Positions 5,991-61,685 of a stretch of DNA of 64,000 nucleotides are shown in pieces; position 1 is the first letter of the stretch, and each line of letters opens with the position of its first letter. The notes beneath the pieces were generated by a model. The model was not told the origin of the DNA. It was given only the letters and a program-made list of their open reading frames with translations, and ran no database searches. Both the position numbers and the translations under genes were made by a program. This DNA is from a virus (Duplodnaviria; Caudoviricetes), in IMG/VR virus record IMGVR_UViG_3300020079_000007, positions 64,001 to 128,000 of that record, one strand, 5' to 3'.

Positions 5991-6178
5991 AAATGGCACA
6001 GCTTTCAAAAAATGATATACTAACTAATTACTAAAACAATTTGTGTAGTGCTTAATATATGCAGATAAGCGGGAATTATATACCGCAAAAAGTAGGGTTT
6101 TATATATCTAAATATATCGTTCAAGTACACCACATTCTTGTTTTAATTTTCAACAATAAAATAAGGAAAGGTGAAAAA

Positions 6179-7810
6179 ATGAGTGCAACATCAGTAATTG
6201 CAGGTCAGAAAGACGCTGCAGCATTGCGTGAGGCAACAAGAAAAACTCTCGCAAAAACAGAAAGAGAATTCCGTGGAGCTAAGTTCGTAGAATCTTGGTC
6301 TCGTATCCCTAAAATCGGTGCAGGTTTGAATAAGCTTCCTGAAGCAGTAGCTCGTAACACAGCTATCAACCTTCAGACACAGGCTGCTTCAATGGCAAAA
6401 ATGACAGAAGCACAGCTTTCAACTTCATTCCAAGGTTTCACACCTGAGAATATGTTGAGACTTGTTCGTTTAGCAATGCCTAACACTTGCCGTAACAAGG
6501 TATTCACAGAGTTCGCTATGGAGTCAGCAAAGGACTCTATCAAATACATCAAACCTGTTTATTCAAAGACAGTTGATGGTAGTGATCTTCACGACAAGCA
6601 CACTGCTAACAAAGAAGGTGCTTATCAGGATGCATCAAAGTATAAAGATGTTTACAATGACATCAACGAAGACGATTTCCAGAGAGCTCTCTATGAGAAC
6701 ACTGAAGACCGCTTCACTCAGGAGCTTGTAAACATTCAGGGTACAGGTGGAGTGTTCACAATCCCTGCAACTCCTGCTGCTGATGCAAATCCTTTTGTTA
6801 AAGCATCAAAGCTCATCCCAGGTTATATGAAAGTATACGTTGGTGATGAAACACATCCAGTTGCTGAAGAGAACAAAAGAACAGGAAACTTCTTCGTAAA
6901 CACAGACGACTATCCTAACGCAAAAGTAACAAAGACTGTAGACGACGAAACTGGTGATATCACAATCGAAGTTGAAGGCGTTGAAGGCGACGTTAAAGTA
7001 TTTGCACGTTTCGATATGGAAGACGACTTCCTCGGAACAAACCTTGGTGAGATTGAACTCGTAATGAGCGACTACAAGTTTGAACCACGTCCAACAACAA
7101 TTGGTGTTACTTGGTCACAGCTTGCTGAAATCACTCTTGACGCTTCATTCGGTCTTTCAGCTCAGGATATGTTGGTACAGTATGCAGGTGATGCAATCCG
7201 TATCAATCTCGACCTCCGTTCATTCAAGCTTGCTTACGGTGTAGCTCGTTCAAACAAGGACTATATCGTTGAGTTCGATGCTGCTTATGGTAACGGTGAA
7301 AACATCGAAGGTTACTTCCACACAGCTCAGACATTCCCATCTGCAGTTGATACAGTAACTGACGTTATGGTAAACGACATCAACCGTGGTGGCGTTTCAA
7401 GAATGGTTGCAGGTTTCTCTGCAGGTTCTTACCTCAAACTCGTTAAGGGTACATTCTCTGACAAAGGCCGTCAGGCTGCAAAGGGTATTTACCAGATTGG
7501 TGAGTTCGGTGGAATCCCAACATTCAAGGCTCCTTCAAGCATTATCCCAACAAATGAGATTATGTGTGTATGGAAGGACGACGAAAACGAAGGCGACGTT
7601 GCAATCGCATTCGGTACATTGGTTCCATTCTTCAACACTGGTATCATCCAGAGAAAGAACTTCTATAAAGAAGCTGGTCTTGCAACATATGGTGACTGGG
7701 CAGTACTTAACAGACGTTATCTCGCTCTTATCCGTATCAAGGGATTGAAGGATACAACAGACGGCCGCGTAGGTGGTATGTTGAAATATTCACAGGGTCC
7801 AAAGGACTAA
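6179..7810 (+). CDS. Major capsid protein, T4 gp23-like
   Basis: MLRLVRLAMPN...FAMES (gp23 Gol-region-like), VTWSQLAEITL, FYKEAGLATYG; strongly biased codons; two hairpins downstream. Confidence 0.85.
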   Translation: MSATSVIAGQKDAAALREATRKTLAKTEREFRGAKFVESWSRIPKIGAGLNKLPEAVARNTAINLQTQAASMAKMTEAQLSTSFQGFTPENMLRLVRLAMPNTCRNKVFTEFAMESAKDSIKYIKPVYSKTVDGSDLHDKHTANKEGAYQDASKYKDVYNDINEDDFQRALYENTEDRFTQELVNIQGTGGVFTIPATPAADANPFVKASKLIPGYMKVYVGDETHPVAEENKRTGNFFVNTDDYPNAKVTKTVDDETGDITIEVEGVEGDVKVFARFDMEDDFLGTNLGEIELVMSDYKFEPRPTTIGVTWSQLAEITLDASFGLSAQDMLVQYAGDAIRINLDLRSFKLAYGVARSNKDYIVEFDAAYGNGENIEGYFHTAQTFPSAVDTVTDVMVNDINRGGVSRMVAGFSAGSYLKLVKGTFSDKGRQAAKGIYQIGEFGGIPTFKAPSSIIPTNEIMCVWKDDENEGDVAIAFGTLVPFFNTGIIQRKNFYKEAGLATYGDWAVLNRRYLALIRIKGLKDTTDGRVGGMLKYSQGPKD

Positions 7811-34876: not shown

Positions 34877-35917
34877 TTATGCTGTTGCGAGTTCTTCGTA
34901 AGCTTTTCTTGAGTAGAAGTTTACGATTGATCTTTTCAAAGCATTTTTTGTTGCTTCTGTGTAATTCAACTTTTCACGAGAAGCCTGAAAGTTCAAAGAA
35001 CCGATTGGGAAGTGAAGAACCAAAGTATGGTTGTGTGAGTCTTCTTTGAAGAAAGAAATTGCATCGTAATCTCCATCGAAAACCTGTGCAATATCAACAT
35101 CGTAAGGAACTCCACCCATATCAACGATTGTTCCTGAGAAACGGCCCGCAATCTTTGAGATAAACTTGTTTGCTGCCATCATATCAGCGTCAGTTGCATC
35201 GTAAGCGTCTGAATACTTGTCTGTCCTTACAATAAGGCGGTTTTCTCCCTTCAAAAGCTTGCGGATGTTGTTGAACTGCTCAAGGCTTTCAACTTCAGCC
35301 TGCTGCAGGAACTTGTCAGCTCCGTTGAGAAGTTCAGGCATCTGCTGTGCAAAAGCAAGTACCGGAATTGCTTCGTAAATGTAGTTGAAATGCTTGTCAG
35401 AAGGAACTGCGAAGTAAACCTTTGTTCCTGTTTCGTTTGAAGGCTCTTCACCGATAAACTTAAAACGTGGCTTTCTGTCAGGACCGCGGTAACAAAGAGC
35501 TGTTCTCTTTACGCCGTCTTTTGAACTTTCAACTGTCCAAGTATCAGCAACAGAGAACGGAGATTTTGCTCCAACTCCAAGGCCACCGATCTGGTCGTTT
35601 GTATCACGCTTGTCAGAACCACCGTAAGTGAAAACATTACGCATTTTTGCGGCATCCATTCCTATACCGTAATCACGAACCCAGAAAGTTGGGTCAATTT
35701 CGTTAGGAAAGTGTATCTGCACAGGATTTTCAACTCCTGCGGCGATATTTGCGTCAATTGCGTTTGAAAGAACTTCACGAATTACTGACTGAATTGGGTT
35801 TGAATAGAGCTTTGTCGAAAGAATGTCGAACAAGCCTGCATCGTTTGAATTGAGTGAAAATACTTCACCGTCGTCGATATTTGACTGAATGTCGGCTGCA
35901 TTTGAATTGATTACCAT
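34877..35917 (-). CDS. rIIA-like protein, N-terminal GHKL ATPase part
   Basis: LYSNPIQSVIREVLSNAIDA, VRDYGIGM, GGLGVGAKSPFS, ASREKLNY. Confidence 0.8.
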   Translation of the reverse strand: MVINSNAADIQSNIDDGEVFSLNSNDAGLFDILSTKLYSNPIQSVIREVLSNAIDANIAAGVENPVQIHFPNEIDPTFWVRDYGIGMDAAKMRNVFTYGGSDKRDTNDQIGGLGVGAKSPFSVADTWTVESSKDGVKRTALCYRGPDRKPRFKFIGEEPSNETGTKVYFAVPSDKHFNYIYEAIPVLAFAQQMPELLNGADKFLQQAEVESLEQFNNIRKLLKGENRLIVRTDKYSDAYDATDADMMAANKFISKIAGRFSGTIVDMGGVPYDVDIAQVFDGDYDAISFFKEDSHNHTLVLHFPIGSLNFQASREKLNYTEATKNALKRSIVNFYSRKAYEELATA

Positions 35918-57694: not shown

Positions 57695-57991
57695 ATGAAA
57701 GAAGAGTTTCGTATGACACCTGAGTGGTGGGCAATGCGAAAAGAATTGATTGCTGAGCAAAAGAAAGACCCAGTTACAAATGCTAAACTTTCTCCTAAGG
57801 CAAACTGCCATCATCTTGACCAAAGAGATGAGAACTACACAAGCACCGATAAAAGACGGTACATTATGTTGCAACCTCTCACCCACAAGATGACTCATTT
57901 CCTTTACCGCTTGTATAAAAAACAAGGAGAGCATCTTTTCGACACTCTCCGTAACATTTTCAAATTGATGGATAAATATTCAAATGATTAG
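57695..57991 (+). CDS. Small HNH-like endonuclease
   Basis: TPEWWAMRK...NCHHLD...LTHKMTH. Confidence 0.55.
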   Translation: MKEEFRMTPEWWAMRKELIAEQKKDPVTNAKLSPKANCHHLDQRDENYTSTDKRRYIMLQPLTHKMTHFLYRLYKKQGEHLFDTLRNIFKLMDKYSND

Positions 57992-59682
57992 TTTGGGTAC
58001 TTTTTCCAGAATGAAGCAGGTGTATTTGCTGCCCAAGCAAACTTTTTCTGCTGTGCTGCATTGTAAATTATTCCGATGTCAACTCCCAAGTCTTTACAGA
58101 AGCTGTAAGCAACTTTTGGGCTTGAGTAATTCAACTTTGCAGTACCAAGAGCAATGTTCTTTGTTGCCTTTTTAAGGTCCTTGTTTGCTTCAAGCTTCTG
58201 AACTCTCAAATCAGCTTTTTCAACCTGTGCTTTGATTTTGTTTTCTCTTTCAGCAATTACATCCAAGAGACCCTTAAGTTCATCACCTGAGAACTTCTTT
58301 TTGCAAGCTGCCTTCTGCTTCCTGAGTTTAGCAAGTTGAACTTTTGCTTTTGCAGCGCGGGCTTTTTCTGCTTCTTTTGCCTTCTTAATTGTTTCGTCAG
58401 TCTTATCCATCTGAGTTGCGAAGTTTTTTGCAACATTTTTCTGATGGTTAAGTTTTGTTGATACAACCAAGCAAGCATTGTCGTAAATTGAACGGATTTT
58501 CCATTCAGGCATTCCCTTTTTGACATCTGCTTTCTGAAGTTCCTCAGCAAGAAGCTTTGTTCCGTAAGTTGTTCGGAAAAGCTTTCCTGTTACATAAGGC
58601 AGGCAATCTGAAAGGAACTTGTTTACTGTTCCTGCAGAAGCTTTATCGAAAACTCTGTCAGAAGGTTTCTTATTTGCAATAAAAGTCTTCAGAGCTTTTT
58701 CAACATTTGCTGGGATTTCAACTGTGTTGTGGTATCTTACAGTATCTTTTCCGAGGAAGTCAAGTTCCAAAGTACCGTTTCCAACCTTGATATTCTTTAC
58801 AAGAAGCTGGGAAGCACCAACTGTTCCATTTTCAAACTTATCAAGCTTTTCAGTTCCGATACGAATACTTGTGCGGAGAATAAGCCAAGAAACTACTGCT
58901 TCCTGCTTGTTTGCGTTTACTCCGTCTTCGATATACTTTTCCATTATTGGCCAATCTTTTGCAAGCTGCTGTGCTTTTTCGTACTTGTGTTTGTCAGCGT
59001 CCTGTTTTACAGTTGATGTTGCGCCAAAACCATACTTCTTTTTGAGAGTTGCATAACCTTCACCGATGTGAACATCAAAATAAGTTGCAACATAAGCTTC
59101 GCGATTTTCAACAACTGCCTTCCACTTATGTCCTGCAGGAGGCTGTGGGATTTTTGATTTATCACCGATGTAATTGATTGTAACATCTTCAGGCTGAATT
59201 GCCCACTTCCACATTCCGTTCATTGGGCATTTGCCGCGGCCGACATACACTCCTTCAGGTTCGAGAACATATCCACCGATCTGCTGCTCAACTCCGTCAA
59301 GGAAGATTACGCCGTATTCTTTTTTGATTTTTTCGTTTTCAAGTTTCTTTGCTTCACGGGCTTCTTTTGTGTTTGCAAGCTTCTTTGCTTCTTTAATCAA
59401 TTCATTTTCTGCCCGCATTGCTTCGATTGTTTTTTCGTATCCTTCTGGGAAAGTTTGAGGCATTCCTACAGGAACATTTTTAAGGAATGTTTTTGCAAAG
59501 TTTTTCTGAAAGTCGGTACGATTTCGATAGTCATCGCCAAGAACTGCCCAGTGCCAAAGCATATCCTCAGAAAGATAATCAAGCTTTATTCCATTGACAA
59601 AAAACTTGCCTTTATATTCATAAGGTTTTGGGAAAAGTGGTCCCTTGTGTTCGATTGTCTTAAATTTTGCTTTTTTAGCCAT
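57988..59682 (-). CDS. DNA topoisomerase IB, long eukaryote/thaumarchaeal-like form
   Basis: EHKGPLFPKPYE, GRGKCPMNG, PPAGHKWK, IRIG, FLGKD, KLFRT, LNHQK, coiled-coil linker, IALGTAKLNY. Confidence 0.92.
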   Translation of the reverse strand: MAKKAKFKTIEHKGPLFPKPYEYKGKFFVNGIKLDYLSEDMLWHWAVLGDDYRNRTDFQKNFAKTFLKNVPVGMPQTFPEGYEKTIEAMRAENELIKEAKKLANTKEAREAKKLENEKIKKEYGVIFLDGVEQQIGGYVLEPEGVYVGRGKCPMNGMWKWAIQPEDVTINYIGDKSKIPQPPAGHKWKAVVENREAYVATYFDVHIGEGYATLKKKYGFGATSTVKQDADKHKYEKAQQLAKDWPIMEKYIEDGVNANKQEAVVSWLILRTSIRIGTEKLDKFENGTVGASQLLVKNIKVGNGTLELDFLGKDTVRYHNTVEIPANVEKALKTFIANKKPSDRVFDKASAGTVNKFLSDCLPYVTGKLFRTTYGTKLLAEELQKADVKKGMPEWKIRSIYDNACLVVSTKLNHQKNVAKNFATQMDKTDETIKKAKEAEKARAAKAKVQLAKLRKQKAACKKKFSGDELKGLLDVIAERENKIKAQVEKADLRVQKLEANKDLKKATKNIALGTAKLNYSSPKVAYSFCKDLGVDIGIIYNAAQQKKFAWAANTPASFWKKYPN

Positions 59683-59915
59683 ATTTTCGACTCCTTACAA
59701 TAATAATATAAAGAATTATTGGTAAAAGTTTAAAATAAATTAACTAAAATTTACTTTGACAGAATGACAAAAAATGTCAAAATAAAATTTGAACTATAAT
59801 GGAGGGATAGAATATTAAGAATTGAAGGTAAATTTATTATAAAGTTAATATATCTTTGTAAAACTAATTATTTTGAAATACACTTAAACGGTAAATTTAC
59901 CTGTGGAGAAAAATA

Positions 59916-61685
59916 ATGAAATCAAAAAAGAAAACATTCCCATTTAAGATTAAATGGAATACACGCAAAGATGAAAGTTCGTTTGAACGCCCAACAATAA
60001 AAACAACTGAAGTTCTTATTAGTGGAAAGATTTTATGTTGTATCGTACTTTCAATAATCTCAGCATTTATTGATATTGTATTCTTCAGCGGATTGTCAAA
60101 GTCGGGCTACCCATTTTTTGGTGTTTATGTCCCTGCTGCAATAATTCTTTCTATTATGTCAATCGGTTTCTCAGGAAGTAAGTTCTTTGTTGCAATGCAA
60201 CTTGCTGCAATAAAAGAAATCGGCGGTCGTTTGAAAGATATGCTTGGTGAAGCATATAATCATCGTCTTATATGGTTAAAATTAAAATGGAATCTTATTC
60301 ATAAGTTTTTGATAACTATTTCAATCATAACTTCTATTTCATTGTCAGTTATTACAATCGGAAACGGTGTTCGTCAGATGGAGCAGAACATCAAAAATCA
60401 AACAATCGATGCACAGTATTTGATTGACTTGAAAACATCAATGAGAACAAATACAACTGACAAACGAGAAGCTGCTAAAGCAAACATTGAAGGCGCAAAG
60501 TCAGCACAATCTTCAGCGAAAGAAGCAGTAGATAAGTATTGGACTTTGCTTGATGATTACCAAACTAAAATAAGAGCAGTTAGAATAAATGACTCATTGA
60601 CAGACGAAGAGAAAGATGTTCAAATTGTAAAGATTAAAAAAGAAGCAGTAAACTCTTTACCTGTAGTTACAAGCAAGAATGTTGAGTATATTTCAAAGCC
60701 TGAATTTGAAAGAGAGTTTGCAAAAATTACAAAAGCAAATGAAACGATAGACACATCTTCTTTATATGAAGAAGCAATTGCATACGATGAAGCTGAACTT
60801 AATTCTTATATCATAGCTTTACAGGATAAAGAGTATCGTACTCCTGATGGACAACTTATTCAGTTTATCAATGAAGACGGTACGCCTGTAAACAGAGAAC
60901 TTGCCATTGCTCGTTTGCAAAACTCAATTATGGCTTGGCAGTCAGATACAGGAGATGCAGGTCCTTCTTCAAAAGTATTTACTTTAGTTGCAACATATCT
61001 TAAGACTGATGAAAAAGCAGGCGGTATGGGAACATCAGAAGTTATTATGATGGTTCTTATTATGGTCTTCGGTATTGTTCAAGAATTTATTATTGCAGCA
61101 TTTACTCCAAGAGCAACAATAAGTCGTAAGATGCTTTCTCAGTTTAGCGAATACCTTTACGGTGTTGACATCAACAGATTTATGCTTAAGACTTATAAAG
61201 ATTATTATGATTTAGGCTTGTTAAAGTCTGATGAATATGAAAGAAAATGTAAGAAAGCAGTAGGACTTCTTGATAATAATGTTGATGCAATTATCGCAAA
61301 ATACAAAGGTGAAGACGTTGAGAATCCTGAAGTCGTAAGACTTGAAGCAGAAGTTGATAAATATAAGCAGCAAGCAGAAGGCTATTTGGCAACATCTGCT
61401 GATTTTCACGACAAGCTTATGAAAGAGACTGAGAAGAACGAACAGTTGACAAATGATATGTTAGCAAAAGATGATCTTGTTCAGGACTTGAAGTATAAGC
61501 TTGCTCAAAAAGAAAATGAAATTGCAAACCTTAAAGTTGTCGAAGCGCCTGCAGTTGTTGAGGCAAAGGTTGAGCCAGTAAAAGTTGAAAGAAAGATTGA
61601 AAGAAAAATTGTAAAAGAGCCAAAAGAACAGGAGTTCTCATCAGCAGTCGATGAGAAGGCAAAAGAAGTAGAGGCATTATTGTAA
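59916..61685 (+). CDS. Multi-pass membrane protein with coiled coils
   Basis: About four hydrophobic segments and long helical regions. Confidence 0.65.
   Translation: MKSKKKTFPFKIKWNTRKDESSFERPTIKTTEVLISGKILCCIVLSIISAFIDIVFFSGLSKSGYPFFGVYVPAAIILSIMSIGFSGSKFFVAMQLAAIKEIGGRLKDMLGEAYNHRLIWLKLKWNLIHKFLITISIITSISLSVITIGNGVRQMEQNIKNQTIDAQYLIDLKTSMRTNTTDKREAAKANIEGAKSAQSSAKEAVDKYWTLLDDYQTKIRAVRINDSLTDEEKDVQIVKIKKEAVNSLPVVTSKNVEYISKPEFEREFAKITKANETIDTSSLYEEAIAYDEAELNSYIIALQDKEYRTPDGQLIQFINEDGTPVNRELAIARLQNSIMAWQSDTGDAGPSSKVFTLVATYLKTDEKAGGMGTSEVIMMVLIMVFGIVQEFIIAAFTPRATISRKMLSQFSEYLYGVDINRFMLKTYKDYYDLGLLKSDEYERKCKKAVGLLDNNVDAIIAKYKGEDVENPEVVRLEAEVDKYKQQAEGYLATSADFHDKLMKETEKNEQLTNDMLAKDDLVQDLKYKLAQKENEIANLKVVEAPAVVEAKVEPVKVERKIERKIVKEPKEQEFSSAVDEKAKEVEALL

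Follow-up and report, generated by a model that had tools for sequence, protein, structure and literature searches.

The window analysed here is a 64,000-nt stretch of viral DNA, bases 64001-128000 of the 188,745-bp IMG/VR record IMGVR_UViG_3300020079_000007 (CheckV completeness 65%). It carries a gene for a topoisomerase IB (TopIB) at 57988-59682 on the minus strand. It is nearly certain that the gene is intact and that its product is the long form of the enzyme, minus the N-terminal extension of the eukaryotic proteins. We consider it likely that the product is a functional TopIB of a jumbo phage of about 300 kb infecting an anaerobic gut bacterium, and that it serves the phage as its own swivel in replication and transcription; the activity is predicted from the sequence. 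We found no earlier publication that describes a long-form TopIB in phages. The kind of enzyme is known, but the phage lineage is previously undescribed.

Domain organization of the phage TopIB

The coding sequence and the domains of its product are located as follows.

57988-59682, minus strand: TopIB coding sequence, intact, 564 aa, 63.8 kDa, pI 9.5 (listing of open reading frames; ATG start, TAA stop)
59080-59667, minus strand: cap / DNA-binding domain Topoisom_I_N (PF02919), residues 6-201, including R149 (Pfam E 8e-38)
58363-59016, minus strand: catalytic core Topoisom_I (PF01028), residues 223-440, with R274, K312, D313, K367, R370 and H413 (Pfam E 3.5e-48; codons verified)
58165-58422, minus strand: coiled-coil linker, two antiparallel helices, residues 421-463 and 466-506 (AlphaFold2 model; superposes on the 70-kDa form of human Top1)
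58009-58206, minus strand: C-terminal domain Topo_C_assoc (PF14370), residues 493-558, with N518 and the active-site Y519 (Pfam E 2e-18)

A first-pass annotation, made from the letters of the window, had described a 564-aa protein with eukaryotic cap motifs and a C-terminal IALGT.KLNY. The open reading frame (ORF) was found at exactly 57988-59682, and all four motifs are present in it: IEHKGPLFPKPYE, VGRGKCPMNG, PPAGHKWK and IALGTAKLNY. The last of these is aligned with human IALGTSKLNY by phmmer. The profile search that the annotation had suggested for Topoisom_I_N and Topo_C_assoc was positive for both domains, and the Topoisom_I_N match reaches 130 bits against a cut-off of 25. According to the phmmer search against PDB sequences, the cap matches the N-terminal fragment of yeast Top1 (1ois, E 1.6e-20), and residues 5-553 align with human Top1 chains (E about 3e-69). 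The other matches are Caldiarchaeum CsTOP1 (5e-56), Leishmania TopIB (8e-47) and vaccinia TopIB (0.0097). On the phage side the alignment starts at residue 5, and the eukaryotic proteins enter it at residue 200 or later. No NCBIfam model matches the 564-aa protein, and its sole PHROG match is phrog_23460, a family of 'unknown function', which covers the catalytic core only (1.5e-12).

The AlphaFold2 model, built on a 26-sequence alignment (A1; identity down to 32%), has a predicted local distance difference test score (pLDDT) of 92.6 and a predicted template modelling score (pTM) of 0.83. The coiled-coil linker claimed in the annotation is seen in it as two long helices, both modelled at pLDDT above 90. 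The entire model is superposed by Foldseek on DNA-bound human Top1 (1RRJ, 1K4T and 1SC7) with template modelling (TM) scores of 0.82-0.83 over about 580 columns, the linker included. Variola and Deinococcus TopIB superpose on about 230 residues of the model only, with TM scores not above 0.30. The three Pfam domains, the full-length Top1 alignment and the fold concur, and the protein is therefore identified as a long-form TopIB. It is of the eukaryote type, as had been proposed, and not of the short bacterial or poxviral form.

The five catalytic residues that had been called recognizable were located by alignment and codon verification. R274, K312, R370, H413 and Y519 correspond to human R488, K532, R590, H632 and Y723, respectively, and the Y519 codon is TAC at 58126-58128. 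The columns of the pentad and those of R149, D313, K367 and N518 are invariant in the 26-sequence alignment. R149, D313, K367 and N518 correspond to the human drug/DNA contacts R364, D533, K587 and N722. These contact residues do not predict the drug sensitivity of the phage enzyme, because the archaeal enzyme retains the camptothecin-contact residues and is nevertheless camptothecin-resistant (PMC4824112).

The ratio of nonsynonymous to synonymous substitution (dN/dS) of the TopIB gene is 0.053 against its orthologs in L009 and in a 306-kb sister genome (L088). The gene is a genuine one under strong purifying selection. Its position is collinear in three independent assemblies (the IMG/VR record, L009 and the 306-kb contig), and its GC content is 0.40 as compared with 0.365 for the genome.

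The carrier genome

The evidence that the carrier genome is a bacterial virus is strong, and the earlier description of the carrier as a bacteriophage was borne out. The record is 92% coding in the standard code, with long blocks of same-strand genes. Sites like the Shine-Dalgarno (SD) sequence precede 53% of its ORFs, as compared with 7% of random positions. Among its genes are those for a bacterial-type tmRNA, for a FlaB-type flagellin (E 1e-106 against solved flagellins) and for a gp6-like baseplate wedge protein (phrog_6 at 2e-11). UvsX/RecA, pieces of a family-A polymerase (PolA), helicases, a TnpB-like transposase, NrdD, a tRNA nucleotidyltransferase and a clamp loader are also encoded. 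The TopIB locus was seen in animal faeces and in bovine-gut metagenomes.

A sister contig of 306,108 bp (G014:C130, JAZNWZ010000130.1; L095-L110) carries a copy of TopIB that is 97% identical at the protein level. This contig is collinear with the record at 84-94% nucleotide identity, and it contains a tmRNA as well as 36 tRNAs arrayed at 205-217 kb. Its ends overlap exactly over 141 bp, which indicates a circular assembly; the contig is the complete genome of a sister species. It was binned into a 'Ca. Fimenecus' metagenome-assembled genome (MAG), and it is almost certainly a mis-binned phage, not part of the bacterium. The bin labels ('Ca. Fimenecus', 'Bacteroidales', 'Patescibacteria', 'Rickettsiales' and 'Kapaibacterium') conflict with one another, and large phage contigs frequently end up in wrong bins; the labels were therefore left out of the evidence on the host.

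A candidate capsid protein of 583 aa lies behind a class-C motif (described below) at 6059-7810 on the plus strand of the window. Its conservation is 86-99% in more than 100 database clusters, located on contigs of 285-313 kb. No match to it was obtained in Pfam, PDB or GenBank phage records, and its AlphaFold2 model was unusable (pLDDT 34).

Comparison with known enzymes

The long-form TopIB was long treated as a hallmark of eukaryotes, and was later extended to Thaumarchaeota-related archaea and giant viruses. To our knowledge, bacterial hosts have only the short TopIB, and this in some species.

In the published work the long form is described in eukaryotes, in Thaumarchaeota/BAT archaea and, within phylogenies, in giant viruses (PMC2621148, PMC4824112, PMC8748870). 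According to a 2016 functional study, those archaea are the only prokaryotes with the long form (PMC4824112). The only mention in a survey of jumbo phages is of a 'phage-specific' topoisomerase I, found in PaBG, Lu11, phiRSL1 and Motura (Iyer et al. 2021, PMC7824862). In the literature searched, no paper joins TopIB with jumbo, huge or tailed phages, none ties PF02919 to phages, and two recent surveys of gut jumbo phages make no mention of the enzyme.

The phage TopIB has the same cap, core, coiled-coil linker and C-terminal tyrosine domain as human Top1 (the 70-kDa form, 1A36/1K4T/1RRJ) and vertebrate Top1mt. It shares with human Top1 the pentad and the camptothecin contacts, and the two are 31% identical over the full length with a TM score of 0.83. 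The nuclear eukaryotic enzymes have a long charged N-terminal extension, whereas the phage, archaeal, giant-virus and mitochondrial forms are without it. Unlike human Top1, the phage TopIB is encoded by a gene of a bacterial virus with prokaryotic expression signals, and it branches outside the clade of eukaryotes and giant viruses. The archaeal TopIB (Thaumarchaeota and Caldiarchaeum CsTOP1, 6Z01; E 5e-56) has the same domains in about 520-570 aa and no extension. It differs in forming a clade of its own (100/100) and is about 30% identical to the phage TopIB. The giant-virus TopIB (Dasosvirus, Marseillevirus LCMAC and many giant-virus MAGs, GVMAGs) is also extension-less, has about 540-600 aa, and shows the same fold with TM scores of 0.75-0.82 in BFVD, where the full-length structural matches of the phage TopIB are giant-virus proteins only. 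In contrast to the phage TopIB, it groups with eukaryotes (100/97), and the flanks of its genes have SD-like sites at 0-4% of ORFs.

The enzyme of PaBG, Lu11, phiRSL1, Motura and BCSR5 (PHROG 23460) is likewise encoded by jumbo phages. The PaBG protein is similar in length (562 aa) and has a PF01028 core (E 5e-15). However, it has no PF02919 cap, linker or PF14370 domain; its tyrosine motif stands right after the core, and its N-terminal region of about 300 aa is unrelated. It is 27% identical to the phage TopIB over 211 aa by BLASTP, with a TM score of 0.41. The short TopIB of vaccinia, variola and Deinococcus (about 320 aa) shares the chemistry and the core fold, but has a small, distinct N-terminal domain and no linker. 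Its similarity to the phage TopIB is low (E 0.0097 for vaccinia; TM score 0.30 or less for variola and Deinococcus).

Relatives and phylogenetic position

A word-indexed search gave about 30 clusters at 47-97% identity and 560-581 aa, metagenomic throughout; the next identities are about 32-37%. An exhaustive search gave 1,959 homologs, 418 of them below E 1e-30. With tblastn, the full TopIB had no match at 1e-5 among 50,697 GenBank phage records (INPHARED), and megablast of 19 kb of the window against GenBank phage records gave no match.

In IMG/VR, 105 contigs carry relatives of TopIB, mostly GVMAGs at 28-33% identity. A set of non-GVMAG contigs, 52-388 kb in length, encodes homologs at 31-38% identity. 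CheckV-scaled sizes of the 13 non-GVMAG records are 184-388 kb, and Terminase_6N was detected in three of them. Capsid_NCLDV had no match in the 13 records, which is a weak negative of a search without a positive control. The two kinds of locus are cleanly separated by SD-like sites: in all 14 loci of the phage group, 29-71% of the ORFs have such a site in front, as compared with 0-4% for the eight loci of giant viruses. The 329-kb genome of G009 is complete and has direct terminal repeats, and all three Pfam domains are present in the TopIB of G009, G004, G013 and L089.

The phylogeny was calculated with IQ-TREE from 96 sequences and 541 columns (LG+C20+F+G4 with posterior mean site frequencies, PMSF) as an unrooted tree. 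The groups and their supports (ultrafast bootstrap / SH-aLRT, the Shimodaira-Hasegawa-like approximate likelihood ratio test) are as follows.

Eukaryotes: 100/97
Giant viruses (nucleocytoplasmic large DNA viruses, NCLDV): 100/99, with the phage sequences outside
Nitrososphaerales-type archaeal group: 100/100
Eukaryotes and giant viruses jointly: 100/97
46 phage-associated sequences, on one side of a branch: 81/97

The FastTree calculation, with 337 sequences, agrees with this tree. A joint clade of phages and giant viruses was rejected by the approximately unbiased (AU) test (delta lnL 70, p 0.003). According to the unrooted tree, the phage TopIB is well supported as a diverse branch separate from eukaryotes, giant viruses and Nitrososphaerales-type archaea. 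The phylogeny had been put forward as a check on the first-pass annotation; the phage TopIB does not group with the short TopIB, and its cap domain is present.

A recent capture of the gene from a eukaryote or a giant virus was rejected from the position outside the joint clade (100/97) and from the AU test. The wider explanation, that the gene is an assembly or binning artefact or was recently captured from such a source in the same gut, is scarcely credible. The nearest named sequences are indeed eukaryotic Top1 and Top1mt, at 32-34% identity, ciliates and fungi occur in gut and rumen samples together with their viruses, and NCLDV-type TopIB occurs on tiny contigs mis-binned into bacterial MAGs. 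However, three independent assemblies have this gene at one and the same position, and a relative with 60% identity keeps its neighbour. The gene has a promoter, SD sequence and terminator of the phage type, and its dN/dS is 0.05.

The greatest sequence diversity is found in the phage group, and the midpoint root falls inside it. Only about 200 residues of the short or PaBG-type TopIB can be aligned, at about 27% identity. The long-form TopIB could be an ancient resident of large tailed phages, as a fourth primary lineage or even as the stock of the archaeal, giant-virus and eukaryotic enzymes; we regard this as an outside chance. If it were true, eukaryotic Top1 would be another replication enzyme of ultimately viral origin. 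A viral origin has already been proposed for Topo IIA (PMC9752973).

L022 (IMGVR_UViG_3300019850_000189, 189 kb, TerL-positive) and P0164 are phage-borne long-form TopIB that do not fall in the main phage group but on a long branch of their own; thus, phages may hold more than one lineage of the enzyme. TopIB proteins of 800-1250 aa (P0235, P0195, P0265, P0215, P0243, L044 and L054) form a fully supported separate clade beside eukaryotes and NCLDV, and two of them are located on giant-virus MAG contigs. Giant-virus-type TopIB is also found on short contigs in bacterial MAGs, L090 (2.2 kb, 'Rickettsiales') and L092 (10.8 kb, 'Kapaibacterium'). These two are probably binning contamination rather than a bacterial long form.

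Expression signals

The signals around the TopIB gene are as follows.

59695-59734, minus strand: class-A promoter-like element TTTAAACTTT-N12-CTTTATATTATTATTGTAA, sigma70-like (TTTAAA, 18 nt, TATATT; consensus scan)
59691-59696, minus strand: SD sequence AAGGAG, 8 nt 5' of the ATG (sequence)
57916-57950, minus strand: intrinsic-terminator-like hairpin and T-run, 38 nt past the stop codon (terminator scan)

The class-A element has 40 nt and precedes six genes in the record, including those of a GHKL ATPase and the tRNA nucleotidyltransferase. In the 306-kb sister genome it occurs 26 times, on one strand only. The copy upstream of TopIB is kept in L009 and L088, and it is diverged but recognizable in L010, whose TopIB is 60% identical. 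The annotation had placed the gene under an early-type promoter; a conserved sigma70-like motif class does stand directly upstream, whereas the early timing is a presumption. The terminator-like hairpin has a 10-bp stem with five GC pairs, followed by TTGTTTTTTA. With a promoter element, an SD sequence and this hairpin of its own, TopIB is a single-gene transcription unit.

Two further motif classes were observed. The class-B motif TGTTAATATA stands before replication genes, with examples in the window upstream of 31242 and 40051. The class-C motif ACTAATTAT is located 2-20 nt ahead of the start codon of giant or structural-type ORFs, with examples in the window upstream of 50856 and 62873. 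The three sharply distinct classes look like a three-stage transcription programme.

In four ruminant-gut studies, the ORF of relatives 92-94% identical to TopIB is covered by assembled metatranscriptome contigs. Such contigs are blind to strand, ends and level, and DNA carry-over is possible; thus, they are a mere hint of expression.

Predicted role of the phage TopIB

Type IIA (PF00521), type IA (PF01131), Toprim (PF01751) and Topo VI-A (PF04406) domains were not detected in the record, in the sister phage contig or in the complete genome G009. In G004, a Toprim match alone was obtained, in a 381-aa ORF. As far as can be recognized from sequence, TopIB is the only topoisomerase of the phage. 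As no other one is recognizable, TopIB is most likely the phage's own swivel.

The mechanism would follow that of human Top1. The cap and the core would clamp shut around duplex DNA. Y519 would attack one strand and form a 3'-phosphotyrosyl link, assisted by R274, K312, R370 and H413. Then the cut duplex would swivel, with friction supplied by the linker and the cap, and the strand would be resealed. Positive and negative supercoils would thus be relaxed without ATP or Mg. The sigma70-like promoter would be read by the host RNA polymerase, probably early, and the enzyme would serve replication, transcription and possibly packaging of the large phage genome. It may fill the place that the T4-type topoisomerase II has in other big phages.

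TopIB enzymes need no cofactor, and any duplex is a substrate. TopIB could be a tool of host take-over, which would be made early and would mainly relax the host chromosome, collapse supercoiling-dependent host transcription and replication, and counter host gyrase, with the phage DNA as a secondary substrate. The cofactor-free action on any duplex fits this explanation, as does the promoter class, which is limited to about six genes in the record (26 in the sister) and is distinct from the class-B and class-C motifs. However, no feature specifically indicates host DNA as the target, and a phage with no other recognizable topoisomerase needs a swivel for its own 300-kb genome. As the main function, we judge host take-over to be improbable; the two roles are compatible and not mutually exclusive.

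TopIB and the tyrosine recombinases have a common catalytic fold, and poxvirus TopIB is able to resolve junctions in vitro. Weak Foldseek matches of the model to XerH and integrases were obtained. From these features, the protein might be a strand-transferase for concatemers, junctions or genome ends and not a general relaxase. However, it has the full clamp, linker and C-terminal domain of Top1, with a TM score of 0.83 to the human relaxase, and neither recombination sites nor partner genes are evident beside its gene. A recombination or resolution enzyme is therefore very unlikely, and a relaxing swivel of the phage is preferred.

Some points weigh against a functional swivel of a tailed jumbo phage. 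The capsid, portal and terminase were not identified in the window's phage by PHROG, Pfam, tblastn or an AlphaFold2 attempt. The profile search for Terminase_6N, Terminase_6C and Phage_sheath_1 gave no match on its DNA, and when about 50 large ORFs were scanned with PHROG and Pfam, the matches were limited to families of replication and RNA repair and one baseplate protein. TerL of the relative G004 detects only G006 and G013, and not this phage. The membership in tailed phages therefore rests on the one baseplate match and the bacterial-type signals. In the phylogeny, the monophyly of the phage group has moderate bootstrap support (81), the groups of the AU test were named only after a first tree was seen, and only 14 of the phage-group members have a known genomic context. 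The RNA evidence is limited to the assembled metatranscriptome contigs of relatives. A very divergent second topoisomerase is also possible, since the GHKL ATPase is weakly similar to the ATPase domain of GyrB (E 0.002).

This GHKL ATPase (346 aa; HATPase_c_3 E 6e-10) is encoded at 34877-35917 on the minus strand of the window, with a class-A promoter as TopIB. Neither a Toprim nor a GyrA-like partner was detected for it.

Split TopIB genes in relatives

The TopIB gene of the window is unsplit. In L010:9998-12508 (IMGVR_UViG_3300026549_000059), TopIB is encoded by two ORFs of 303 and 280 aa, and an opposite-strand gene for a GIY-YIG homing endonuclease (Pfam E 9e-8) sits between the halves. 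One beta-hairpin is also the break point in at least seven cluster representatives of the N half and at least four of the C half, whose identity to the query is 36-59%. This hairpin corresponds to query residues of about 302-305, between the equivalents of R274 and K312. The N halves are P0031, P0193, P0205, P0226, P0238, P0241 and P0261, and the C halves are P0150, P0196, P0199, P0212 and L015. The shared break point indicates that a two-gene TopIB split at one site recurs in the phage group. Judged from these sequences, the recurrent split suggests either that one conserved target was invaded repeatedly or that a form with two subunits is old. The heterodimeric TopIB of Leishmania (2B9S) is a precedent for an enzyme of two polypeptides. 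However, according to the matched chain ranges, the Leishmania enzyme splits after the core and has its tyrosine on a 62-residue chain, whereas the phage relatives split inside the core.

Implications for the distribution of TopIB

A diverse, selected branch of long-form TopIB is now placed in viruses of bacteria. The known distribution thus changes for arguments on the origin of eukaryotic Top1 and for the 'out of virus' idea of topoisomerases, and a fourth group is available for any rooted TopIB phylogeny to include. The phage TopIB would also be an alternative jumbo-phage route to a topoisomerase, a cofactor-free swivel in place of the T4-type topoisomerase II. The proteins are small, extension-less homologs of Top1 that are probably expressible in bacteria, some of them naturally in two pieces, and may be used as models for clamp dynamics and drug action.

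Genes adjacent to TopIB

One neighbour of TopIB is conserved.

59916-61685, plus strand: divergent membrane / coiled-coil protein, 589 aa (a 517-aa homologue has the same divergent position in L010)

This protein has no match in Pfam or PHROG. In the intergenic region between it and TopIB, close inverted TGACA/TGTCA repeats (TTGACATTTTTTGTCATTCTGTCAA) are located at 59756-59783 and are kept in L009 and L088. They could be an operator between the divergent promoters.

On the other side, a 98-aa ORF at 57695-57991 on the plus strand converges on the TopIB stop codon with a 4-nt overlap. It matches no Pfam or PHROG family, and shows an HNH-like C-H-H...N...H pattern. This ORF may be a degenerate free-standing homing endonuclease, beside a gene that is invaded by such elements in relatives.

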